In this document: one piece after another, positions 4,638-60,424 of the stretch
Layout: each line of letters starts with the position of its first letter
How positions within the stretch are numbered: the first letter of the stretch is position 1
DNA from: Candidatus Latescibacterota bacterium
GTDB lineage: Bacteria > Latescibacterota > UBA2968
Assembly (NCBI GenBank): GCA_965222605.1
Contig: OZ244960.1
Location: 1,472,001-1,536,000, forward strand
Length of the DNA stretch: 64,000 nt
Direction: 5' to 3'
Notes under the pieces: generated by a model
Database searches by the model: none
What the model was told of the DNA's origin: nothing
What the model saw: the letters and a program-made list of their open reading frames with translations, nothing else
Program-made: the position numbers and the translations under genes

Positions 4638-5741
4638 CTATCCCAACGCCTGATTCTGCATATATTGAATCCCCGCAACGATTTCTTCGCGCGGCACATC
4701 ATCTCGCGGCACAATTTTTCCGATCCGCTCGGGCAATACAAATCGGATGACACCATCCCGCGCTTTCTTATCGCTCATCATCCGCGTCAACACCTCATTG
4801 ACCTTCAAATCCGGCACACCTTTGGGAATGCCCAGACGGGTAATAAGTGCATTTTGCCGCTCAAATGCATCCTGCGACCACATCCCCTTTTGCACAGCGA
4901 TATACCCTGCGGCCAACATCCCCAAACACACCGCCTCACCGTGTTTATAATAGTCGTAATGCGTCACCACTTCCAGCGCGTGTCCCACCGTATGGCCATA
5001 ATTCAAAATTTCGCGCAAACCCTTCTCGGTTTCATCAGCAGCCACAACCCCAGCCTTGATGCGACACTGTTGGGCAACAAGCCAATTGATCTGATCCGCA
5101 GACAGGCTTAAATTTACGGCACCTTCAATATGCTCTTCCAAAAATGCCACCAGATGGGAATCGCGTATAATCCCGTGTTTGATCACCTCCGCCATACCCG
5201 CTCGCACTTCGCGTTTGGGTAAGGTATCGAGTGTAGCTGTATCGATCAACACCAACTTTGGCTGGTGAAAAGCACCGATCATGTTTTTTCCCAAAACGTG
5301 ATCCACAGCTGTTTTGCCCCCCACACTCGCATCGACCTGCGCTTCCAGCGTTGTGGGCACCTGAACAAAATCAACACCTCTCAAATACGTCGCAGCGACA
5401 AAGCCTCCCATATCGCCAACCACACCACCGCCCAATGTCACAATACAGGATTTGCGATCCAATCCCGCCGCGATCAAATCGCCGTAGATCTGCGCGGCCG
5501 TCTCAAATGTCTTGTATTGCTCGCCATCTGGCACAGTTACGACCACAACCTTCACACCGGAGCGCGCGAGACTTTGCTGAACCGTATCGAGATAGAGCGC
5601 GGCAACTGTCGGATTGGTCACAATCGCCGCTGTTTCTCCCAACCCGCGTTCCGCATACAGATCGCCCAAATCGCGCAAACAATCGCGACCGATCAAAATA
5701 TCATAACTTCGGTCACCTAAATCAACCGTCACCGTTTCCAT
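4638..5741 (-). CDS. aroB: 3-dehydroquinate synthase
   Basis: LGGGVVGD, QVDASVGGKT, LNYGHTVGHALE, HGEAV motifs; start set at ATG 5741. Confidence 0.95.
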   Translation of the reverse strand: METVTVDLGDRSYDILIGRDCLRDLGDLYAERGLGETAAIVTNPTVAALYLDTVQQSLARSGVKVVVVTVPDGEQYKTFETAAQIYGDLIAAGLDRKSCIVTLGGGVVGDMGGFVAATYLRGVDFVQVPTTLEAQVDASVGGKTAVDHVLGKNMIGAFHQPKLVLIDTATLDTLPKREVRAGMAEVIKHGIIRDSHLVAFLEEHIEGAVNLSLSADQINWLVAQQCRIKAGVVAADETEKGLREILNYGHTVGHALEVVTHYDYYKHGEAVCLGMLAAGYIAVQKGMWSQDAFERQNALITRLGIPKGVPDLKVNEVLTRMMSDKKARDGVIRFVLPERIGKIVPRDDVPREEIVAGIQYMQNQALG

Positions 5742-5752
5742 TATCAATCCCA

Positions 5753-5858
5753 ATCAGGATGTAAGGATTTAAGGATGTTCAGGATACCCATACTCCGCCA
5801 CCCAAAAACTGGGGTGTGGGGTATCCTGTGATATCCTGAAAATCTTGTCAATCCCGAT
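5753..5858. repeat. Imperfect palindromic REP-like element built from periodic AGGAT/ATCCT units
   Basis: Left arm ATCAGGATGTAAGGATTTAAGGATGTTCAGGATACC is imperfectly complementary to right arm GGTATCCTGTGATATCCTGAAAATCTTGTCAATCCCGAT; lies between aroK and aroB and overlaps the aroK stop. Confidence 0.65.
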
Positions 5859-49597: not shown

Positions 49598-50272
49598 TCA
49601 CACCCCTTCATCCCTCACCACTTCCCCATCGAGCAGATGCACAATGCGTTTGCTATAGCCCGCCCACTTTTCAGAATGCGTCACCTGCACAATCGTTGTC
49701 CCTCCTTCGTGCAACCTGGTGAACAAATTCATCACATGTTCGCCCTGCGTCGAATTTAAGTTTCCAGTAGGTTCATCAGCCAGGATCACGCGCGGTTTAA
49801 TCACAACGGCGCGCGCAACACCTACGCGCTGTTGTTCGCCGCCAGACAATTGGTGGGGAAACAAATCCTTCTTTTCCACCAGATCAAACTCATCCAGCAT
49901 CGTATTCACCATCTCCTCGCGTTCATCGCTCTTCACCTTTTTGTATAACAAAGGCGTCTCGATATTTCCGTACACGGTCAGTTCGTCAATCAAATGATAG
50001 CTCTGAAACACAAAGCCGATATTGTTTTTGTGACAATCCGACCGCTCGCGCTCGCGCATCTTATGCACGGCTTTGCCATCAAACAAGTATTCCCCTCTAT
50101 TCGCCGAATCCAGCATACCCATAATGTGCAACAAAGTGGATTTACCAGATCCAGAAGGCCCCATAATGGACACAAACTCCTCGGACGAAATCTCCAGATC
50201 AATCCCCTGCAACACAACCGTTCGAATAAAACGCGACGAATACCACTTTTGAATACCCGACATCTTAATCAT
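49598..50272 (-). CDS. ABC transporter ATP-binding protein (MacB/LolD-like), no adjacent permease
   Basis: GPSGSGKST, LSGGEQQRV, ADEPTGNL; GAGGAGG RBS. Confidence 0.9.
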   Translation of the reverse strand: MIKMSGIQKWYSSRFIRTVVLQGIDLEISSEEFVSIMGPSGSGKSTLLHIMGMLDSANRGEYLFDGKAVHKMRERERSDCHKNNIGFVFQSYHLIDELTVYGNIETPLLYKKVKSDEREEMVNTMLDEFDLVEKKDLFPHQLSGGEQQRVGVARAVVIKPRVILADEPTGNLNSTQGEHVMNLFTRLHEGGTTIVQVTHSEKWAGYSKRIVHLLDGEVVRDEGV

Positions 50273-50331
50273 CTCGCACCTCCTCGATAAGCTAATTCTG
50301 AACAACGGATCAAATTGTAACTCCCATCCTA

Positions 50332-50491: not shown

Positions 50492-51397
50492 CTATACCTT
50501 CACCTTCAACGCACCCGGAACAACCTCAATCTTCGCGGGAATCTCACACACGGGTTCGCCATCGGCAAAAATCCACAAAGGATCATCGGACTCAATCCGC
50601 AAAGCCCTGGTCTGCACAACACGCACAGCAGAATGACCAATATGTGCGCCGGAATACGCGCTCAAAAACATCCGCAAAACCGTCCAGCGCGAAACATCTG
50701 CCACAATGCACACATCCAGCATCCCATCATCAACAATGGCATCAGGTGCAATTTTAATCCCACTCCCATAAAAAGGCGCATTCGCCGTTGCCACCAGCAA
50801 AATACGCCCTTCAAAAACGCCAAAATCTCCTCGCAGACACACAAAAGGAGATCGATATCCAAATAGTGTTCGCAAAACTGTCAGCCCGTATGACACCGTT
50901 CCCCCCGCCTCCAAAGCCCGTGTGAGAATGTGCATTGAACCAGTCCCCTGATTCCGCATCCTTTGCGCCACCGCCGTATCGAAACCCAAACTCGCAACAG
51001 TCACAAAAAATCGGTCGCCCACTTTCCCCAGATCAATCGCGCGATCCACCCCATGCACCAGCGTATTGACCACATCCTTCACATCTCTGGGCAACCCCAA
51101 TGCCCGCGCCAAATCATTCCCGCGACCACAGGGCACAATCCCCAAAACCGCATCTGAATTTGCGAGACCATTGACCACTTCATGAACCGTCCCATCCCCC
51201 CCACACGCAGCAACCTGTCGCGCACCCCGCGCCAACACTTCTCGCGCTATCCGCTCGCAATCGCCCGGCGCCTCCGACACCATCAAATCGGAATTTACAC
51301 CGCGCTCGCGCAACAAATCCGCAACCCGCTCACCCACGCGCCTTGCACGACCGCGTCCCGAAACGGGATTTGCAATAATTGTCCAGTGATTTGACAT
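50492..51397 (-). CDS. Diacylglycerol kinase family lipid kinase (DagK/YegS)
   Basis: NPVSG, GGDGTVHEV, PCGRGNDLA, YGSG, DDGMLD, ADGE. Confidence 0.9.
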   Translation of the reverse strand: MSNHWTIIANPVSGRGRARRVGERVADLLRERGVNSDLMVSEAPGDCERIAREVLARGARQVAACGGDGTVHEVVNGLANSDAVLGIVPCGRGNDLARALGLPRDVKDVVNTLVHGVDRAIDLGKVGDRFFVTVASLGFDTAVAQRMRNQGTGSMHILTRALEAGGTVSYGLTVLRTLFGYRSPFVCLRGDFGVFEGRILLVATANAPFYGSGIKIAPDAIVDDGMLDVCIVADVSRWTVLRMFLSAYSGAHIGHSAVRVVQTRALRIESDDPLWIFADGEPVCEIPAKIEVVPGALKVKV

Positions 51398-51492
51398 AAG
51401 CTCAAAAAGAAAACTCACCTCTCTATGAGATGAGTCAATAAATAATGCATCTAAATGGTTCTCCTCATCGGGAAATTCTTCGCAGAGAGAAC

Positions 51493-52647
51493 CTAAAAAA
51501 GACCATACTCTTGCTTCAATCTTTGAATCCGATTAAAGGATTCGCAAATGCGTTCTTCTTCAACAACGCCATCTGCTACTGCCTGTACAATGGCATTTTT
51601 TACATCGTACACCTGTTCAATATTGTATTCCCCAATCTGGTTGGCGAGCAAGATCATATCAACACCTGCTTTTATAGCTTCAACAGCCGCCTCTGCCAAC
51701 CCATACGCTTCAACAATCGCCCCCATTTGCATATCATCGGAAATAATGACCCCATCAAAACCCATCTCATTCCTGAGGATCTTCGTCATAATATCATGCG
51801 ACAAAGTTGCCGGTCTTCCACTTTTATCGAGCTCCCGATTGACAATATGCGCGGTAATAATCGGATCGTCATAGCCTTTTTGGATAAATTTTTGATACGG
51901 CAAAAGCTCTTTTACACGTTGGTATGTCTCCGTGACATCGGTAACACCGAGATGTGTATCGCCCGCCGCACTTCCGTGTCCGGGAAAGTGTTTCAGAGTC
52001 GGTATCACCTGCCGCGCTCGGTGTGCGTTGACAAACGCATTGGCATGCGCTACCACAGCCCTCGGCACATCGCTAAATGACCGTTCTATCGCGCCAATAG
52101 CCGGACTTTTGGGATCTATATTTACATCGACAACCGGAGCAAAATTCCAGTTAATCCCCATATCTTTCAATTCGCGTGCAAGTGCGCCTGCCACTCTTTT
52201 TGTCCTACCTGAGGACTTCCTGCCGAGTTTTTGAGCAGAAGGCACAGATACAGCAAATCCATACTCCTTTTTTAGTCGATTGACATACCCACCTTCTGCG
52301 TCAACCGCGATAAAATAGGGCACGGTTGCGACAGCCTGAAGCGCTGAGGTCAATGCGCGAAGTTGCCGCGGGGACGTGATATTCCGCACCACCTCACCTT
52401 TGCTCGGCAGATCGTAGTCAAAAAGCACCACCCCACCGGGTTGAATATCCCGCAGTATCGCCGCGATATCCCCATCTAAAACATCACCGCGAAAACCGAT
52501 CATCAGCATCTGCCCCACTGCTTCCTCTAACGCGGGGAAGTCAGGGTGAAGCTTATGAGACCGCGTCATTGGCTCCAAAAAATTCTCTTTGAACGCAAAC
52601 GTCGCGCCTTCGCCCTCCTGAATCGGAATTTCAAAATCAGCGGGCAT
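51493..52647 (-). CDS. GH3 beta-N-acetylhexosaminidase (NagZ-like)
   Basis: DAEGGYV, APVVD, KHFPGHG, DTH, SDDMQM; ATG overlaps the SDR stop. Confidence 0.88.
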   Translation of the reverse strand: MPADFEIPIQEGEGATFAFKENFLEPMTRSHKLHPDFPALEEAVGQMLMIGFRGDVLDGDIAAILRDIQPGGVVLFDYDLPSKGEVVRNITSPRQLRALTSALQAVATVPYFIAVDAEGGYVNRLKKEYGFAVSVPSAQKLGRKSSGRTKRVAGALARELKDMGINWNFAPVVDVNIDPKSPAIGAIERSFSDVPRAVVAHANAFVNAHRARQVIPTLKHFPGHGSAAGDTHLGVTDVTETYQRVKELLPYQKFIQKGYDDPIITAHIVNRELDKSGRPATLSHDIMTKILRNEMGFDGVIISDDMQMGAIVEAYGLAEAAVEAIKAGVDMILLANQIGEYNIEQVYDVKNAIVQAVADGVVEEERICESFNRIQRLKQEYGLF

Positions 52648-53459
52648 CACACCATATCCTCCAACCCCTGATCCCTCATCTTCCTCTTCACCAGCCACTC
52701 GACAATTTTGGGATGAATCAATTGAAGCCAGGGCAATGCGCGGTGATGCCGGGGAAGCACCAATTCGCGCTTCTGTTTTCGCATCGCTTTCAAAATTGCC
52801 ATGCAACAATATGTAAGAGAAATCGACTCTTTGTTGTGCCGCTGTGAGGAATCGCCCAATGCTTCACCATCTTTCCCAAAGGCGTGCTGTCTCAAATTCG
52901 TCCCCTCAAGCCAATGCGGCAATACCGTCAACACATGCACCTCTTCCACTTCCAGACGCAGAGCGTTTAGAAAACCCAGCACCGCGTGCTTTGACGCCCC
53001 ATATCCCGTATGCAAAGGCACGCCAAATTTCCCCTGCACAGAGGCAATACCTACGATCATACCCTTCGAAACTTTCAAATGTGGCAATGCCGCATGCACA
53101 CAATAAACCAGACCGAGATAATTGGTCTCCATCAGCTTGCGAAACATCCCCAAATCTTCTACCTCGTCAAACCGCGCCCACATACTGATCCCGGCATTGG
53201 CAATCAAATAATCTATGCGGTCAAATGCTGCAATCGTCGCCTCAATCAATTGCTCGCAATCTTCGATCCGTGTAACATCCCCCACCACTGTCACCACCTG
53301 TGCGCCCAACCCCCGACACTGCTCAGCCGTCTCGCCTAACTTTTCCTCTCGCCGAGCAAACAATGCCAGATGTGCGCCCTGTTTCGCCAATTCCAGAGCC
53401 AATGCAGCCCCAAGCCCCGAAGACGCGCCTGTAATAATCGCTACCTTATCGCAAAACAT
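52647..53459 (-). CDS. Classical SDR oxidoreductase (DHRS7B-like; candidate acyl/alkyl-DHAP reductase)
   Basis: TGASSGLG, NAG, YGASK; substrate inferred from context only. Confidence 0.8.
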   Translation of the reverse strand: MFCDKVAIITGASSGLGAALALELAKQGAHLALFARREEKLGETAEQCRGLGAQVVTVVGDVTRIEDCEQLIEATIAAFDRIDYLIANAGISMWARFDEVEDLGMFRKLMETNYLGLVYCVHAALPHLKVSKGMIVGIASVQGKFGVPLHTGYGASKHAVLGFLNALRLEVEEVHVLTVLPHWLEGTNLRQHAFGKDGEALGDSSQRHNKESISLTYCCMAILKAMRKQKRELVLPRHHRALPWLQLIHPKIVEWLVKRKMRDQGLEDMV

Positions 53460-53513
53460 TGCGCCATTCAAAATCAATAATTCCTCTCTATTTAGCTATA
53501 TTGAGGAGGTCTG

Positions 53514-53816
53514 TTAAATGAATCCATCCCGTACAGCCTGGCTTTCAAGTGCTCGTTCGAAACTAACGAGGCGGCGAATGAGACTGTTGTAGCGGGAGTG
53601 CGTATCTCCAGGATATATGGCACCAAGAGCCTTATAGAGCGCGAGTTCCGGCTGGTCTGGCAACGCCACCTGGGGAACCTCCAAACCAGCCGCACGCAGA
53701 CGTGTCGCACCAATGGCGACGAGCAAGGCTTCGACCGTCATCTCACCGCGCTGCAACGCTTCAATGCCCGACATTACGAGATCTGCACCGGGCAAATTTT
53801 GGGGGACTCTATTCAT
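53514..53816 (-). CDS. Hypothetical 100-aa protein coupled to the nucleotidyltransferase gene
   Basis: ATGA overlap with the upstream gene, GGAGGA RBS. Confidence 0.65.
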   Translation of the reverse strand: MNRVPQNLPGADLVMSGIEALQRGEMTVEALLVAIGATRLRAAGLEVPQVALPDQPELALYKALGAIYPGDTHSRYNSLIRRLVSFERALESQAVRDGFI

Positions 53817-54346
53817 TGCTCCTCCATCGCGTTCACCGCATTCTGCACCTTCTCGCGGAAACACGCAGCATCAATCGCGGGATAACGCACCAAACCAGGC
53901 TCAATCGCGTCAAAGAGCGCGATCAGGCGCATCGGCTCAATCAACTGTTCCCGGTGCATCGCCTCGACATCGCGCAGGTCCTGTTCATGCCCGCGCTCAA
54001 TCTTCGCGAGTGCCTGCGCGTAGAAGTCATAATGAAAAAAATCGACCGCCCCGTATCGAGCGATGAACGCGCTCCGCTCTTGCCAGTTGGGAAGGGGAGG
54101 AATAAAATCATCGGGAGCCGCCAACTCGACATTTATGTTTAAGATATTCTTAGCGCGAGCGATCGCATCAAAAACACCGATGGGTTCCGGATCGAGCTTG
54201 AGATCGACATCTACAGTGGTCGCTCGCCAGCCCAGCAGCACCGCTGAACTCCCTCCAACGAGATAAATTCGGCCTTCGCCTCGTGCCTCTGCACCGAGAC
54301 GCCTCATGAGTTCCTGCACCTTCAGGGCATCGGTCGTTTCTCGCAT
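53813..54346 (-). CDS. Nucleotidyltransferase-fold protein (DUF6036-like)
   Basis: YLVGGS...TVDVD (GG..DxD), KIERG..DLRD. Confidence 0.72.
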   Translation of the reverse strand: MRETTDALKVQELMRRLGAEARGEGRIYLVGGSSAVLLGWRATTVDVDLKLDPEPIGVFDAIARAKNILNINVELAAPDDFIPPLPNWQERSAFIARYGAVDFFHYDFYAQALAKIERGHEQDLRDVEAMHREQLIEPMRLIALFDAIEPGLVRYPAIDAACFREKVQNAVNAMEEQ

Positions 54347-54374
54347 GGTATTGGCGTTCCTCTCACTGTCATTT

Positions 54375-56207
54375 TCAATCCCCAAACGCGCCATTGCCAA
54401 TGGCAAAAATATTATTTGGATCCATAGCCTTTTTCATTTGCCGCAGCACTGCAATGCTATTTTCGCTTTGAATCTGAGACAAAAATCCACTGCGGAGCTT
54501 GCCCACGCCGTGATGGTGCGACAAAGACCCGCCGTGGTCTAAAATCTCCTGCCGCAACTGGTGCTCAATCTTGTGATAAACGCCAACCGCATCCTCAAGC
54601 CCCTGTGCGCAAAAACCCATGGTAAAATAAATGCACACACCCGTGTGATAGGTCTGTGTCACGCGATAGGCCAGAAAGGGTTTGCCCGGCACGCTGTATT
54701 CTTCACACAAAGCAATTAGCTTCTTTTCCACCGCACCAATAACATCGTGAATATTAGTCCACGGCACAGAAGTTTCAAATGTCTCGCCCAAAATGTGAAA
54801 CTGAGTAAAAAAATCGCGAATATACGCAATCCCAAACGTCAGCATATACCCCCGCTCGCCACGGCTCGCCCCGCCCGAAATACCGCCGTACTTCTTCACC
54901 AAACGAAAAATCGTCTTTGCCTGCTGCCTGACCTCGTCTTTTGTCCCTTCCATCACAATCGTACAAGCCACCATCTGCTCTGGATCAAAACCCTTGACCT
55001 TAAACAAAAAAAATCGCTGAATACCTTGCTGGAGCTTCTCGAACCCTTTCGCCTCGGGCTTCAGCGCCTGCCCAAGATGAAATTCCGTATTGTTCACCAG
55101 CCGAATACTCGCCGGAATTTGCCCCGTCTGCCGAAGTGCCTTTAAGTAATCTACACCCCGTTCAAATGACGGAAACACCAGCGAGCCAAACGCCTGTGCT
55201 TCGGGCTGTTTGTGAATCTTCATAGTCGCCCGGGTAATAATCCCCAAATTGCCCTCACTACCAAACAAAAACGACCTGGGCTGCACACCTGTCGAATTGC
55301 GCGGCGTCGCATGGTGAGTCTCCACCTCCCCCGTTGGCGTCACCAGCGTGGCCTCTATCACAATATCCTCAATATTGCCATACCGATTCTTTTTCATACC
55401 ACTGGCATTGGTCGCAATCCATCCCCCCAGAGTTGAAAACTCCAAACTATCTGGATCGTGTCCCGACGTGTACCCCCGCTCATTCAGCGCAATCTCCAAT
55501 TGCTTACCCGAAATACCCGCTTGCACACACGCTTGAAAATTCTCTTCATCCACCTGTACAATGCGATTCATGCGACGCATATCCACCGACGCGACCATTC
55601 GCGTCTCTAAAGTCGGAATTGCGAGCGCACCGCTCACATTCGTCCCGCCGCCATAGGGCACCAGCACCACATTGTGATCATTTGCAAGTTGGACAATAGC
55701 CTGAATATCCGCGTCTTCCTCCGGGAACAACACCACATCCACCAGGCGTTCGGGAGGTCGATGGTACGAAATTTGATAAACCTCATCCACACTCAACTGC
55801 CCGTGACTATGCACCAGACGCTCTATGTCCTCCTGAGAAACGCCATCTTCATCGAGTGCCTCGCGCACCGCCCTCAAAAATTCATCATTTGCCACGGGTT
55901 TGGGCAAATCGCGGTGCTCGACCTCCTGCCCCATATCTTCGAGCCTGATCGGCAAATCAAGCACCTTTTCGACAAAAGGCAAAAAATACGGCATCCGATA
56001 GCCACACAACGGATATCGCGTTCCCGTCACCTGCACAGTCCTGTCATCGTCAAACTCAAACCGCGTATCCTTATACCCCCACTTGTGTGCAAACCGCTCG
56101 CCTTCTGTCCCCTCAGAAAAACGGTCTTTACTGGCAAAAGCGCGACGCCCTCGAACGAGCAAAAATACCAGCACCAATAAAAAAGCGACAACCATCAGTT
56201 CATTCAT
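54375..56207 (-). CDS. Alkylglycerone-phosphate synthase (alkyl-DHAP synthase, AGPS)-like FAD enzyme
   Basis: PYGGGTNVS, PDSLEFSTLGGW, ASGMKKNRYGNIED, GSEGNLG, PASIRL, FETSVPW, RVTQTY..G.CIYF, GGSLSHHHGVGK; N-terminal membrane anchor. Confidence 0.88.
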   Translation of the reverse strand: MNELMVVAFLLVLVFLLVRGRRAFASKDRFSEGTEGERFAHKWGYKDTRFEFDDDRTVQVTGTRYPLCGYRMPYFLPFVEKVLDLPIRLEDMGQEVEHRDLPKPVANDEFLRAVREALDEDGVSQEDIERLVHSHGQLSVDEVYQISYHRPPERLVDVVLFPEEDADIQAIVQLANDHNVVLVPYGGGTNVSGALAIPTLETRMVASVDMRRMNRIVQVDEENFQACVQAGISGKQLEIALNERGYTSGHDPDSLEFSTLGGWIATNASGMKKNRYGNIEDIVIEATLVTPTGEVETHHATPRNSTGVQPRSFLFGSEGNLGIITRATMKIHKQPEAQAFGSLVFPSFERGVDYLKALRQTGQIPASIRLVNNTEFHLGQALKPEAKGFEKLQQGIQRFFLFKVKGFDPEQMVACTIVMEGTKDEVRQQAKTIFRLVKKYGGISGGASRGERGYMLTFGIAYIRDFFTQFHILGETFETSVPWTNIHDVIGAVEKKLIALCEEYSVPGKPFLAYRVTQTYHTGVCIYFTMGFCAQGLEDAVGVYHKIEHQLRQEILDHGGSLSHHHGVGKLRSGFLSQIQSENSIAVLRQMKKAMDPNNIFAIGNGAFGD

Positions 56208-56228
56208 CACATACCTCACAAAATGTTT

Positions 56229-58175
56229 TCAAGACTCTTCCGGATTCAACAACGTCGCAATATGCACCGCTTGAAACAGCGCGGCAGCCTCGGACTGAAT
56301 CCGCAGCGACCGTCTTTTGGGCAACAGGGTCGTCTCCCCCAGCATCGGCGGCGAAACCCACACATCAACTTGCCCCGGATTGATATTGATATTGCCCTTT
56401 GGACACTTGGGCCACAGCGCGTGAAGCCCGCGGTACGCAATCGGCACAATCACCACATCCTGGGGCAATTGTGCAAACACTCCGTGTTGAAGCGGAAATT
56501 GCTGAACTGCAAAAGCCGCCGTCGTCGCCATGGGATAAATAACGCCCGGACGCTCTGTCAATGCCTGTGCCACGCGCTGTGTCGTATGGCCCGCAGCATG
56601 GGATCGCTCGAGCATCACATAGCCATCGACATTTTCCAGAATCTGATCAAATACCTCAGACGTCATCCCAAACTGCGTAATCTGTTTCGACCCAATTTTA
56701 ATACCCGAGCGCGCCAGCCCAGTACGCGCCAGAATCACACAAGGTTCGGGTCTTTCCCATCCCATCGCGTCCAAAAATTCTCGAGACTGCAAAACCTTGT
56801 ACAAAACGGGATGGTCAAACAAACTCTGATGCGTCGGCAAAAAAATAAGACGCCGATCTTCCGCATCGGCTCCCAAATCTCGTACAATGGCTTCAAAATG
56901 GGGATCGATATAAACATCAACGCTAATATCAAAAATATCCAGCGTGCGACGTCCCCAATCGAGCCAGGTGCGCCATCCGGCTTCGCGGCGACGGATGGGA
57001 TCGGCTTCTTTTTCCAACAATTTCTTTTTTTGACGTCCCACCTTGAGCGAAGTCCCCATCCACCGGGCAAAACGCATTCCTCGCTGCAACTTCGAAAATT
57101 GCCCCCGACGTCCGACATTGGGATATTCCAAAAATCGTCCTCGCGCCGTATCTGCGAGCAAAGCGGGAATTTCTATACGCGAAACTTTTTGTCCAACACG
57201 ATCGATTTGCGCGTTCACATCGCATATCAGCTTAACTGACAAATCAATCATATCCCGCGTCAAATAACTATACTCCTGCCCATACCAATACAGCCTGGGA
57301 CGCAACTTGGTGGGATCCTCCTGATGCGCGTGCAAAAATTCAATCAACAACGCCTTGATGTGCAACACATCATCATCTATCCCATCCAGACCCACATCGC
57401 TCACCTCGCGCAACCGCGCCAAAGCCACTTCCGCATCCACAATAACCTTCCACACCGACACACCAAACCAGCCAAAATTTGTCAAATAATTATACCGCGT
57501 TGACAGCAACCCCCCCGCAGCGATCAAATTGAGCGTGCGCTGTGCCACATCTTGCAGCAAATCGCGCAAAGATCCCTCAATCCGCTCGCCATCTCGTTCA
57601 CAACTGTACTCCTCGGCCCAGTGTGCGTCCTCATCCACCGCCACATTGCCAAGAGCCTCTGCAACGGCGCGGGCGTGCGACATCGGCACCTGTGTAATAT
57701 GCACCTGAGCCAGTGCCTCTTCCACGGCTTCGGGCGCGTGTAACTCCGCCTGTGCCAGAGCCTTCAAATACAGAGACTGATACAACTTCAAAAAATCTTT
57801 CGCATCCCCGCGCCCTCGTTCGACAAATTGTCGCCTGAGTTGCAAATAAATTCGGCTGCCCGTGTGATATTGCGGAAGCAACTCCGAAAAAGGCCGATAC
57901 GCCTCGTCCAAACGCTCATTGCGAACCTCGGGCAGGCCCCGAAAAATCGCATCCACAAGCTGCGCGCGAAATTGCAGTGCCTCCATATCCATCGCCCCGC
58001 TCTGACTTTTGGGCCAGATCAGCGCATCTGGATCGAACTCGTCAAAATAGCCATCGTGACGCACGGCTTCGAGCATAAGCTGAACCGATTGGTCATAAAT
58101 AGCCAACATCTGCTCCAGATCGTCGAGCAGTGTTTCGTGCAATGGACGAGTATCTGATTTATCGCGTGTAGTCAT
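56229..58175 (-). CDS. Glycerolipid acyltransferase (PlsC/LPLAT domain) with large unknown N-terminal region
   Basis: PTHQSLFD (HX4D), IYP, IVPIAY..LWPK in the C-terminal third. Confidence 0.75.
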   Translation of the reverse strand: MTTRDKSDTRPLHETLLDDLEQMLAIYDQSVQLMLEAVRHDGYFDEFDPDALIWPKSQSGAMDMEALQFRAQLVDAIFRGLPEVRNERLDEAYRPFSELLPQYHTGSRIYLQLRRQFVERGRGDAKDFLKLYQSLYLKALAQAELHAPEAVEEALAQVHITQVPMSHARAVAEALGNVAVDEDAHWAEEYSCERDGERIEGSLRDLLQDVAQRTLNLIAAGGLLSTRYNYLTNFGWFGVSVWKVIVDAEVALARLREVSDVGLDGIDDDVLHIKALLIEFLHAHQEDPTKLRPRLYWYGQEYSYLTRDMIDLSVKLICDVNAQIDRVGQKVSRIEIPALLADTARGRFLEYPNVGRRGQFSKLQRGMRFARWMGTSLKVGRQKKKLLEKEADPIRRREAGWRTWLDWGRRTLDIFDISVDVYIDPHFEAIVRDLGADAEDRRLIFLPTHQSLFDHPVLYKVLQSREFLDAMGWERPEPCVILARTGLARSGIKIGSKQITQFGMTSEVFDQILENVDGYVMLERSHAAGHTTQRVAQALTERPGVIYPMATTAAFAVQQFPLQHGVFAQLPQDVVIVPIAYRGLHALWPKCPKGNININPGQVDVWVSPPMLGETTLLPKRRSLRIQSEAAALFQAVHIATLLNPEES

Positions 58176-58194
58176 GAGAGTTACTCAAAAAAGA

Positions 58195-59799
58195 CTAAAC
58201 ACCTGTCTTTAGCACATGGCGTTGCAAACCGGGAATATGAATATCTTTTACGTAAACGGGCCAATCTATGCGCGAAACATCACAATTAAAAATTTCTTTA
58301 TCTTCTGCATCCATGCTGTCAAATAGCCGATTCATATTGTCATTTTGAAACACGCAATCCAGAGAAATATAAGAGCCGTAAATATCGGTAAGCGACAGCG
58401 TATTTTCCAGCGTCGCATTCAAAATCGATAAATGGCGTTTGCGTTTTGAAACATTGCCCATCGGCACCCAATCCAGTGCCCATTGCAAAATTTTGAGTGG
58501 CAATAGATACTTATAGCGCAACTTTCGACGGAATTGTGACAGCGTCGGATAGGTCCACGGCGTCACTGCAATGGGTTTGCCATTGCGATCGCGCATTGGA
58601 TTGTTCACAAAATACTCATACACATACTGGACGAACTCACCCACCGTCACCGGGTTCTTTGCACTTGTTGTCACATGATAAACCTTCAAATCGGCATTTT
58701 TACGGATGGTAGGCAAAACACCGATAATCACATTGATAATAATATCCACGGGAATAACGTCTAAAACCGCTTCTGGACGCGCTGGAAAATCCGTCAAACG
58801 CCCCTTGCCGTAGTGTACAATAAGTGGGTCGGCCACTTTTAGTCCCTCCAGCCAGCCAGGCTCTGGATCGGACAAACTGCTCTCAATAATAGAAGGACGC
58901 ACGATCACGGTAGGCAAATCACCTCGGATCTTGGCAATCATCTGCTCACCCATGGCTTTGGTAAAAGAATAACTGTCGTGCCAGCCCAACTCTCGCCCGC
59001 GCTTTATGCCGCGCGCGACCATTTGTTCCCGCACCCAGCGCTGGCGCAAAGCCTCCAACTGATGTTCCCGTCGATGCGCTGTAACGCGCTTGCCACGATC
59101 CTGTCGGTCGAGCAACCGCGTAAATTCCGCAAATCGCTCGGGGCTTCGCGACGCCGCCTCTACTTCGCGGCTATACGCCAAAATATCTTCAACCTCCGAA
59201 TCCAGACTATAATCGGGCGCGCGACCATTTCCCATCTGTTGTGCCACCGTTTGATCGGGCACGGGCGCGTTTTCAGAAATGACCCTCTTTTGCCGCCCAT
59301 TGACATAAGCCGTTGAAACATGCACGAGCACAGCATCTCGACACGCTTTGGCAAATTCGACAACGCGCTTGGCCCCAAGTGTATTTTGCGCCAAAGCCAG
59401 ATCCAGTGGTGCGTCAAAAACCACATTGGCCGCGCTGTTAATCACAACATCGACTTCACGGGTCAACCGCGCATATGTCTCGGCATCCATGCCGAGGTGA
59501 TCTTGTGTCAAATCGCTCGGCACGGCAATGACTTTTTCGCGCATCACAGCATCAAAACGATCCCCGAGTTCTGCGCGCAATCGCGCAAAAGCACCAGATT
59601 GCAAAATCTCCTTTTGCAGTCGGTCTTCGGCACTAATGGGCTTGCCCCCTCCCCGCCTTTGAGGTCGCACCATAAGATAAATGCGCCCAACATCTGGCAC
59701 CTGACAAAGGATTTTTCCCACCAATCCCTTGGCCAGAAAACCAGTTGCACCCGTAACAAAAAGAACCTTGTGGTTCAAAAATGGAATAACAACACTCAT
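58195..59799 (-). CDS. Alcohol-forming fatty acyl-CoA/ACP reductase (FAR, male-sterility family)
   Basis: TGATGFLAK, HVSTAYV, YSFTKAMGE, RPSIIES, EPGWLEG, DVIPVD, C-terminal IDW...HIPGL sterile domain. Confidence 0.9.
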   Translation of the reverse strand: MSVVIPFLNHKVLFVTGATGFLAKGLVGKILCQVPDVGRIYLMVRPQRRGGGKPISAEDRLQKEILQSGAFARLRAELGDRFDAVMREKVIAVPSDLTQDHLGMDAETYARLTREVDVVINSAANVVFDAPLDLALAQNTLGAKRVVEFAKACRDAVLVHVSTAYVNGRQKRVISENAPVPDQTVAQQMGNGRAPDYSLDSEVEDILAYSREVEAASRSPERFAEFTRLLDRQDRGKRVTAHRREHQLEALRQRWVREQMVARGIKRGRELGWHDSYSFTKAMGEQMIAKIRGDLPTVIVRPSIIESSLSDPEPGWLEGLKVADPLIVHYGKGRLTDFPARPEAVLDVIPVDIIINVIIGVLPTIRKNADLKVYHVTTSAKNPVTVGEFVQYVYEYFVNNPMRDRNGKPIAVTPWTYPTLSQFRRKLRYKYLLPLKILQWALDWVPMGNVSKRKRHLSILNATLENTLSLTDIYGSYISLDCVFQNDNMNRLFDSMDAEDKEIFNCDVSRIDWPVYVKDIHIPGLQRHVLKTGV

Positions 59800-59868
59800 A
59801 AAAAGACCCCGGCGTCCAAAAAAATTAAAACGCAACAGCGCGAAAAAGTATCTCCTCAAAGTGCCCTA

Positions 59869-59974
59869 ATTAAAGACGTACATTGGACTTGTGTCAACCT
59901 CTTTCTCAGGCAGTTCACAAGCGCAAATCCTTATCAAAAATGAGGTTGACAAAAAAAAGGCCAACTCCTATCTT
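59869..59974. promoter_or_regulatory. Back-to-back sigma70-type promoters for the FAR cluster (-) and the ndk-fab cluster (+)
   Basis: Minus: TTGACA(59897-59892)-N17-TTTAAT; plus: TTGACA(59946-59951)-N17-TATCTT. Confidence 0.65.
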
Positions 59975-60025
59975 GTCCATCTTCAGGCCGGTATAAGCCG
60001 TATTTCTCCACACGGAGTTTTATGC

Positions 60026-60424
60026 ATGGAATGCACCCTGCTCATCGTCAAACCCGACGCTGTTGCACAAAATGTAATCGGTGAAATCATTCGCCGTCTC
60101 GAAGAAAAAAAATTTCGGATTGTAGATCTGAAAATGGTTCGCCTCACGCGCAAACAGGCCGCCGAGTTTTATGCAGTACATCGCCAACGGCCTTTTTACA
60201 ACGACCTGCTCGATTTTATGACCTCTGGCCCCTGTGTGCCCATGGCACTCAAACGAGACAACGCCGTCGCATTTTTGCGCGAAGCCATTGGCAGCACCAA
60301 TCCCGAAGAAGCCGCAGAAGGCACCATTCGCAAAGACTTTTCAACCGATATTCAAAACAATGCCGTACACGCCTCAGATTCACTGGAAAACGCGGCCAAA
60401 GAAGTGGCTTTCTTTTTTGAGTAA
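60026..60424 (+). CDS. ndk: Nucleoside diphosphate kinase
   Basis: IVKPDAV, FYAVH, MTSGP, GTIR, NAVHASDS. Confidence 0.96.
   Translation: MECTLLIVKPDAVAQNVIGEIIRRLEEKKFRIVDLKMVRLTRKQAAEFYAVHRQRPFYNDLLDFMTSGPCVPMALKRDNAVAFLREAIGSTNPEEAAEGTIRKDFSTDIQNNAVHASDSLENAAKEVAFFFE

Follow-up and report, generated by a model that had tools for sequence, protein, structure and literature searches.

Comparison with described ether-lipid gene clusters

Previous studies have described an operon of Myxococcus xanthus, noted since 2006, in which MXAN_1676 encodes AGPS, MXAN_1675 an alcohol-forming fatty acyl reductase (FAR) together with a GNPAT-like acyltransferase, and MXAN_1674 a protein of the NAD-dependent epimerase/dehydratase family (PMC9131029; PMC13012113). 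The eukaryotic FAR-GNPAT fusions are reported to derive from myxobacteria (PMC13012113), and matches to elbD and agps have been reported from metagenome-assembled genomes (MAGs) of sponge Latescibacterota, a phylum there called new to ether lipids (bioRxiv 10.64898/2026.06.23.733905). Here we analyze a cluster of eight open reading frames (ORFs) on the minus strand of positions 50492–59859 of a 64,000-nt stretch of DNA (the window; positions 1472001–1536000 of contig OZ244960.1) from a Candidatus Latescibacterota genome that is a single contig of 6.34 Mb and 98.7% complete. We give a probability of roughly 0.7 that this cluster specifies an AGPS-dependent pathway to 1-O-alkyl glycerolipids. 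The close relatives of the genome are MAGs titled Latescibacterota, and its source lineage is sponge-associated Latescibacterota, a phylum of the Fibrobacterota-Chlorobiota-Bacteroidota (FCB) group known from MAGs; an earlier note on this DNA, made from the letters alone, had already placed it in an FCB lineage.

As a kind, a cluster of AGPS, FAR, acyltransferase and reductase is already known, both from M. xanthus and from the agps genes of sponge Latescibacterota, and the earlier note overlooked the M. xanthus operon when it stated that the characterized bacterial routes use other enzymes. As described, that operon likewise joins AGPS, FAR, an acyltransferase and an NAD(P) reductase and mirrors the peroxisomal steps. 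The window locus is a distinct variant of it. Its FAR and acyltransferase are separate genes, whereas they are fused in M. xanthus; its acyltransferase (X below) is of an orphan LPLAT (lysophospholipid acyltransferase)-fold family that is invisible to Pfam and not a recognizable GNPAT; its reductase, locked to AGPS, is a classical rather than an extended short-chain dehydrogenase/reductase (SDR); and a FAR-linked lipid kinase is attached.

The eukaryotic peroxisomal pathway uses FAR1, GNPAT, AGPS and an acyl/alkyl-dihydroxyacetone phosphate (DHAP) reductase (DHRS7B/PexRAP, yeast Ayr1). The order of chemistry proposed here is the same, AGPS and its guinea-pig counterpart share about 42% identity (hand count of the alignment match line), and FAR has the same two-domain build. 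X, on the other hand, shows no homology to GNPAT that can be detected in the sequence, and the window AGPS has a hydrophobic N-terminal stretch (MNELMVVAFLLVLVFLLV...), where eukaryotic AGPS carries a peroxisomal targeting signal. The features of the locus are as follows.

58195–59859, minus strand: FAR, alcohol-forming fatty acyl reductase (NAD_binding_4 plus Sterile); probable ATG start at 59799
56229–58175, minus strand: X, orphan 648-aa acyltransferase (fold, and HX4[D/E] at H449)
54375–56219, minus strand: AGPS with hydrophobic N-terminal segment (PDB matches and catalytic residues); alternative ATG at 56207
53813–54406, minus strand: DUF6036 nucleotidyltransferase (Pfam DUF6036, 4.4e-07)
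53514–53864, minus strand: 116-aa ORF overlapping the DUF6036 gene; no family match
52647–53477, minus strand: classical SDR (adh_short, 2.2e-47); candidate alkyl-(acyl-)DHAP reductase
51493–52647 (upper end approximate), minus strand: GH3 NagZ-like beta-N-acetylhexosaminidase (Glyco_hydro_3, 3.8e-67)
51412–51436, minus strand: terminator-like hairpin of 10 pairs plus T-run, between GH3 and kinase (consensus scan only)
50492–51418, minus strand: YegS/BmrU-type lipid kinase with DagK catalytic domain (TIGR00147); accessory member

The junctions were read directly from the DNA. The TAG stop of FAR is followed after 19 nt by the ATG of X, and the TGA stop of X lies 9–21 nt from the AGPS start, depending on the start codon chosen, so that the tight, co-oriented spacing of these three genes noticed earlier holds. 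The SDR stop codon and the start codon of GH3 overlap in the sequence TGATG. AGPS and SDR are separated by the DUF6036 gene and the 116-aa ORF, and SDR and kinase by the GH3 gene. A promoter/terminator scan of the region gave site counts not above those of shuffles.

Family and fold identities, the AGPS catalytic residues, synteny and co-occurrence were computed; from these we infer all substrates, products and the operon structure. FAR would convert acyl-CoA or acyl-ACP to a fatty alcohol, and X would acylate the sn-1 position of DHAP, perhaps accepting glycerol 3-phosphate (G3P) too. The AGPS flavoenzyme would then exchange the acyl group for the alcohol to give alkyl-DHAP, whose keto group the SDR would reduce to yield 1-alkyl-sn-glycero-3-phosphate. 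The sn-2 position would be acylated by the single PlsC of the genome, encoded elsewhere, and the YegS-type kinase would be a facultative addition that probably re-phosphorylates alkyl(acyl)glycerol.

The alkyl-DHAP synthase homolog

Judged by its sequence matches, the FAD enzyme is a genuine member of the alkyl-DHAP synthase family (EC 2.5.1.26), as the earlier note had proposed, and all five AGPS motifs listed there are present in the translation. Pfam recognizes FAD_binding_4 (2.9e-39) and FAD-oxidase_C (7.5e-39). Against all PDB sequences, residues 46–606 match guinea-pig AGPS (4bby; E 6.1e-151, 507 bits) and the protein also matches the Dictyostelium enzyme (2uuu; 2.5e-89, 304 bits); the next family, D-lactate dehydrogenase, is matched only in the FAD domain (2.2e-25, 92 bits). 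R373, Y531 and H568–570 of the window protein align with guinea-pig R419, Y578 and H615–617, an arginine, a tyrosine and a histidine loop to which the structural literature assigns catalytic roles, and the mutant entry 4bca has F in the same alignment column as the tyrosine. The similarity to the animal enzyme is of the order reported between M. xanthus MXAN_1676 and human AGPS (about 42% identity; PMC9131029), and AGPS has been described as phylogenetically uninformative, with too little signal (PMC13012113).

A divergent AGPS variant, 45–46% identical to that of the window and lacking a partner SDR, occurs at loci L103 (genome G151) and L108/L035 (G038), and as a second copy in G094 (G094:C428:10192–11916).

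The fatty acyl reductase

FAR contains both domains of its family, the NAD_binding_4 Rossmann domain (8.7e-65) and, C-terminal to it, Sterile (6e-15). It is the single FAR-like gene of the window genome and stands alone, and no ElbD was found in that genome. Its sequence is 48–50% identical to the FAR domain of Latescibacterota ElbD-like fusions, relatives of the ElbD (elbA–E) system of myxobacteria and of sponge Acidobacteriota and Poribacteria. No FAR-X fusion was seen among the 120 longer FAR proteins listed. A second FAR architecture, FAR/AMP-binding/HAD of about 1200 aa (P0179–P0203), occurs in genomes of 3–4 Mb.

An orphan acyltransferase family

The product of gene X, filed as "hypothetical protein" in source records, yielded no match in Pfam, NCBIfam or the PDB sequences; in particular, no Pfam or NCBIfam acyltransferase family, PF01553 included, is matched at E ≤ 0.01. 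A profile of 25 X sequences found nothing in the PDB, no acyltransferase included, and phmmer against 1.84 billion representatives returned 53 matches, all to its own family and none to GNPAT. The family is confined to Latescibacterota and neighbours.

Structure prediction is more informative. The AlphaFold2 model (predicted local distance difference test, pLDDT, 84.3; predicted template modeling score, pTM, 0.88) is helical in its N-terminal half and alpha/beta in its C-terminal half, with residues 1–360 forming a long-helix domain and 361–648 a predicted PlsC-like LPLAT module. When the model was compared with 48,161 chains by VIA-align, Thermotoga maritima PlsC (5kym_B) came first (Z 15.0, root mean square deviation 3.0), with 220 of 232 residues superposed and model residues 361–644 lying on chain residues 3–240; thus the whole PlsC module is reproduced, including its N-terminal two-helix element. 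The runners-up were squash glycerol-3-phosphate acyltransferase (GPAT; Z 9.4) and human GPAT1 (Z 9.3). Foldseek likewise gave 5kym (E 3e-5, TM-score 0.67–0.69 on the target), and its top matches were all LPLAT-family acyltransferases. Profile comparison by hhalign of residues 361–648 with the acyltransferase domain of ElbD-like proteins gave 84% probability (E 7e-6) with HX4D, the motif II arginine, motif III and the hydrophobic-proline motif IV in register, and a control with the N-terminal half gave 0.1%. The HX4D motif itself is THQSLFD (H449-x4-D454), and H-x4-[D/E] is kept in 25/25 homologs; the motif has meaning because the fold places X among acyltransferases. ESM Atlas clusters of PF01553 were also retrieved for the C-terminal part (0.93), which serves as a lead only. 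By predicted fold and profile, and not by sequence, X is an ACYLTRANSFERASE.

X thus shares with T. maritima PlsC (5KYM) and PF01553 the superposable module of 288 C-terminal residues, HX4[D/E], the motif II arginine and motif IV. It differs from them in having no PF01553 match, in motif III (xGTT) and in the extra helical N-terminal domain of 360 residues. Folded alone (pLDDT 85.1), this extra domain resembled only generic or designed helix bundles (best Z 9.3), and Foldseek gave 0 matches for it at E ≤ 0.001. In genus g31, 1042-aa frames around X were considered as a possible fusion; their 291-aa upstream stretch has no Pfam family (L087) and is treated as an open frame in GC-rich DNA, with no fusion.

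Reductase, kinase and inserted genes

The SDR has a strong adh_short match and scores 293.9 bits with NF004825 (cut-off 215), and its translation holds the glycine-rich ITGASSGLG and YGASKHA (YxxxK) motifs. Its best PDB matches are clavulanic acid dehydrogenase and 11beta-HSD1. From its family and its position behind AGPS, described in the next section, it is a candidate bacterial alkyl-(acyl-)DHAP reductase. The kinase scores 177.7 bits with TIGR00147 (cut-off 118.65) and matches DAGK_cat (1.7e-33) and YegS_C (3.3e-35).

The intervening genes have narrower distributions among the loci surveyed below. The DUF6036 gene is present in 8/80, all close relatives, and the 116-aa ORF, which has no Pfam or NCBIfam match, in 9/80; the DUF6036 gene is probably a lineage-specific insertion outside the pathway. 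Together the two overlapping frames (53514–54406) have the look of a small mobile insertion of two genes, which may be toxin-antitoxin-like. The GH3 gene, whose NF003740 match (4.5e-57, 193.7 bits) is below the cut-off of 207, is present in 13/80 loci and lies as an insertion between SDR and kinase in the genus of the window only.

Conservation of gene order

One genome per species was scanned across 185,579 prokaryote species, giving 160 relatives of X, and the loci of the best 80 of these were examined by local tblastn with the window proteins. In 50 of the 80 the gene immediately upstream of X, on the strand of X, is FAR; AGPS lies downstream in 42, and in 37 of those 42 the SDR directly follows AGPS. 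The five AGPS loci without SDR comprise four cut by contig ends and one with an AGPS variant of 45% identity. A kinase was found near X in 20/80 loci, and in 30/80 neither FAR nor AGPS lies within 10 kb of X. FAR-X-AGPS-SDR is thus syntenic across Latescibacterota MAGs. At loci without the DUF6036 gene and the small ORF the SDR abuts AGPS, and at loci without GH3 the kinase abuts the SDR (directly after it in L023, L028, L029 and L064); therefore FAR-X-AGPS-SDR(-kinase) is the older array, into which the intervening genes of the window were inserted in particular lineages.

The genes are arranged differently in sister family f4, where they are dispersed and X is far from AGPS and FAR. The SDR is still directly after AGPS in 15/18 genus representatives of f4 (the three exceptions being one contig end, one ortholog elsewhere and one AGPS variant). 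The FAR domain of f4 is mostly within a protein of about 1400 aa with FAR, AMP-binding and PF01553 acyltransferase domains, and long FAR proteins related to these fusions also carry the acyl-carrier domain PF00550. FAR/AMP-binding/acyltransferase is the reported architecture of ElbD in myxobacteria and sponge symbionts (PMC9426513), so f4 has an ElbD-like fusion together with X and AGPS-SDR, and the window genome has no ElbD. A DagK-type kinase is divergent from and within 1 kb of the f4 FAR/ElbD gene in 10/20 sampled loci, and the same placement was found in 49 of 61 kinase-bearing f4 genomes when coordinates were compared by hand. AGPS-SDR and FAR-kinase are therefore conserved pairs in this second arrangement. 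An example is the ElbD-like fusion at L084:6671–10945 (G132; such proteins are P0172–P0290), which has the divergent DagK-type kinase upstream.

The co-conservation of FAR, X and AGPS, which the earlier note had named as a check, was thus found. That note's HX4D acyltransferase stands as to motif and LPLAT fold; it is not a recognizable GNPAT, and it is also present in AGPS-less genomes (below). Its inclusion of SDR and kinase in the system is upheld by gene neighbourhood, although other genes separate them from the first three, and its suggestion that the kinase salvages alkylglycerol is still a guess, given the kinase-less genus discussed below.

Co-occurrence and the missing canonical first step

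Co-occurrence was counted in 168 genomes across the phylum, that of the window included. Group A is the class of the window (families f1–f4, 132 genomes including the window's), and Group B comprises the other classes (f5–f14, 36 genomes). The genomes are related and not independent, so the counts that follow represent few evolutionary events. AGPS is present in 125/168 (E ≤ 1e-60), X in 132/168, both in 123 and FAR in 131/168; the SDR ortholog is present in 119/168 (E ≤ 1e-55) and the kinase in 103/168 (E ≤ 1e-35). All 119 SDR-positive genomes have AGPS, the SDR ortholog being without it in 0/119. The six AGPS-positive genomes without SDR are G038 and G151 (AGPS variants), G092 and G034 (contig ends), G116 and G119. 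AGPS is without X in two genomes that are 75–78% complete (G119 and G148), and X is without AGPS in nine (G075, G062, G037, G039, G149, G150, G152, G153 and G008). In the seven of these that were checked (G008, G037, G039, G149, G150, G152 and G153) the SDR is represented only by partial paralogs of 31–38% identity. The role of X thus probably goes beyond that of an accessory to ether-lipid synthesis.

The two groups differ in the genes of the canonical first step as follows.

Gene: Group A; Group B
PlsY: 0/132; 29/36
PlsX over cut-off: 1/132; 33/36
GpsA: 0/132; 29/36
X: 130/132; 2/36

In the window genome itself we found no PlsY (positive control in 8 genomes), no GpsA C-terminal domain (positive control in 10 genomes) and no PlsX, and its one PF01553 protein is a 222-aa PlsC-like gene beside cmk. 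Since the class lacks PlsY, GpsA and, in 131/132 genomes, PlsX, the whole canonical initiation module has been lost, which leaves X as the sole candidate enzyme for the first acylation; X may be the general first-step (DHAP or G3P) acyltransferase of the clade. X occupies there the phyletic slot of PlsB, PlsX/PlsY, chlamydial PlsE and mycobacterial PlsM/PlsB2, and PlsE is a precedent for lineage-specific replacement of the first step (PMC6167442). By sequence X lies outside all of these, and the additional loss of GpsA is entailed by none of the known replacements as their sources describe them.

A wider proposal is that the class dropped GpsA, PlsX and PlsY and makes both ester and ether glycerolipids by a peroxisome-like acyl-DHAP route, in which X would acylate DHAP, AGPS would optionally swap in the alcohol and the SDR would reduce the keto-lipid to (alkyl/acyl)-G3P. 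We offer this tentatively and would put the odds somewhat against it. The claim that all lipids start from DHAP is restrained by the glycerol kinase of the window genome (664.8 bits, cut-off 590) and by the X-bearers that lack the SDR; with neither AGPS nor the SDR ortholog, these would need another reductase or another source of G3P. No glycerol kinase over cut-off was found in G132, G153, G037 or G008.

Two genomes from other classes show further arrangements. G008 lacks AGPS, the SDR ortholog, PlsX, PlsY and GpsA, and at its locus L086 (G008:C2:366000–385999) FAR-X is followed by an adenylyltransferase, a 462-aa family-less protein, a HAD hydrolase, a Zn-alcohol dehydrogenase, a LarA_N-like protein and a DagK-type kinase; the genes after FAR-X may be an alternative downstream set. 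G031 (f13), which is 96% complete, lacks X, AGPS, PlsX, PlsY and GpsA, and has a 1449-aa ElbD-like frame; a DagK-type kinase lies 6 kb downstream of it.

Alternative interpretations

Several observations weigh against an AGPS-dependent route to alkyl lipids encoded by this cluster. In the window unrelated genes part the SDR and kinase from AGPS, and the hairpin (51436–51412) precedes the kinase. Genus g10, which bears AGPS and the full FAR-X-AGPS-SDR array, has the kinase in 0/15 genomes (E ≤ 1e-35), and the kinase is therefore not obligatory. X has no kinship to GNPAT or PlsB that phmmer detects, and its nearest fold is that of an sn-2 acyltransferase, PlsC. Its motif III reads xGTT, not EGTR (YP(M/x)(A/G)TT, with neither E nor R conserved), so its phosphate-binding residues differ from those of the LPLAT EGTR motif, which we take to bind glycerol phosphate. 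Because X is present in nine AGPS-less genomes, of which the seven checked have no SDR ortholog, it is not dedicated to ether lipids. Finally, disruption of the AGPS gene in M. xanthus is reported to have lowered ether lipids only slightly, ElbD being the main route there (PMC9131029).

In another reading, X is simply a housekeeping G3P acyltransferase that has replaced PlsX/PlsY, the acyl-DHAP for AGPS coming from another enzyme or a side activity. The inverse distribution of X and PlsX/PlsY in the two groups, the retention of X in the seven genomes without AGPS or SDR, its distance from AGPS and FAR in f4 and the glycerol kinase of the window genome, by which G3P would be obtainable from glycerol, all speak for this. 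We nevertheless consider it unlikely, since GpsA, the biosynthetic source of G3P, is absent from 132/132 genomes of the class, four X-bearing genomes have no over-cut-off glycerol kinase, AGPS needs acyl-DHAP and the genome holds no other acyltransferase candidate for it, and the FAR-X-AGPS gaps in the window are so short. Dual G3P/DHAP specificity, as known for yeast enzymes, would reconcile it with the AGPS-dependent route. FAR and X might instead form a wax-ester or neutral-lipid module in which X acylates the fatty alcohol, AGPS-SDR being a neighbour of separate function. FAR-X is indeed the tightest pair (50/80 loci against 42 with AGPS) and is kept in AGPS-less G008, G037 and G039, and the genome gave no match to the WS/DGAT domain (PF03007) in a search whose control was silent, so that its absence is not established. 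Such a module would, however, leave the class without any first-step glycerolipid acyltransferase; X is away from the FAR/ElbD gene in f4 and matches the PlsC module in full, two-helix element included (model 361–644); and FAR-acyltransferase pairing is a known ether-lipid arrangement, that of the FARAT fusions (PMC13012113). We regard this explanation as quite improbable. It is hardly credible that the AGPS homolog is an ordinary FAD-linked 2-hydroxyacid oxidase or dehydrogenase. Its two Pfam domains are common to GlcD and D-lactate dehydrogenase, but the 507 bits to AGPS over nearly the entire protein compare with 92 to D-lactate dehydrogenase, all NCBIfam GlcD-type matches are far below their cut-offs, and the AGPS-specific HHH loop and the catalytic tyrosine and arginine are kept.

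Novelty and significance

A literature search of partial coverage turned up nothing published about the X family, the AGPS-SDR pair or a loss of PlsX, PlsY and GpsA in Latescibacterota. What looks new is the orphan acyltransferase family, the strict coupling of AGPS and SDR, and the absence of PlsX/PlsY/GpsA complemented by X. Sponges and sediments commonly contain non-isoprenoid alkyl glycerol ethers, for most of which no bacterial producer has been named; the cluster names a candidate producer lineage with a complete gene set. It also offers a candidate bacterial alkyl-DHAP reductase in the AGPS-coupled SDR, and an unannotated acyltransferase family at the GNPAT position. Experimental work is most deserved by the replacement of GpsA, PlsX and PlsY throughout the clade. 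If the acyl-DHAP proposal made above is true, X would be a new, fourth kind of bacterial first-step acyltransferase, and a bacterial class would, like peroxisomes, begin its phospholipids with DHAP; ether lipids could then make up much of the membrane in these bacteria of sponges, sediments and soils. This would bear on how far bacterial membrane biosynthesis can depart from the textbook scheme, and on the debate whether the eukaryotic ether-lipid pathway came from bacteria (PMC13012113). In animals, the kinase acting on alkylglycerol is reported to be ACAD10, which is unrelated to DagK (PMC13596139).

Other lipid genes, neighbouring genes and RNA libraries

The PlsA/Ger domain (PF09989) was not found in the window genome in a search whose control rings in four genomes, T. 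maritima included. PEDS1/CarF (PF10520) gave no match there in a search whose control gave none either, a result that speaks neither for nor against plasmalogen formation. The genome has a GGGPS/HepGPS-family gene (G000:C1:5305215–5305964; L134:1450–2199) that scores 272.8 with NF003198 (cut-off 247) and 191.8 with TIGR01769 (cut-off 161.55), and which may be a second ether-lipid enzyme, of the isoprenoid type. PF13685 proved too generic as a probe for glycerol-1-phosphate (G1P) dehydrogenase: its five matches are AroB and ordinary Fe-alcohol dehydrogenases, and no G1P dehydrogenase was recognized among these five Fe-ADH_2 matches in the genome. AroB, 3-dehydroquinate synthase, lies in the window itself (4638–5753, minus strand; TIGR01357 394 bits, cut-off 305).

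On the downstream side the kinase is followed by an ABC-transporter ATPase gene (49598–50305, minus strand), in the same position in close relatives, and a nucleoside diphosphate kinase-like ORF (59891–60424, plus strand) is divergent from FAR.

Logan contigs from four metatranscriptome runs of two studies lie on the cluster at 92–99% likeness, and one 6,804-nt RNA-library contig spans 51511–58117 and thereby covers GH3, the SDR, the insert, AGPS and the greater part of X. Metatranscriptome libraries may hold DNA, and a contig across genes is not the same as a single transcript, so these contigs are a weak hint that the cluster is expressed. No significance attaches to the parts of the DNA that contigs of some runs leave uncovered. 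The contigs of runs X1–X3 skip 76 nt at 52534–52611, with 10 other letters instead, and replace 28 nt at 53495–53524 by 88 other letters; both changes most likely reflect variation between strains where genes overlap or in the DNA between them.

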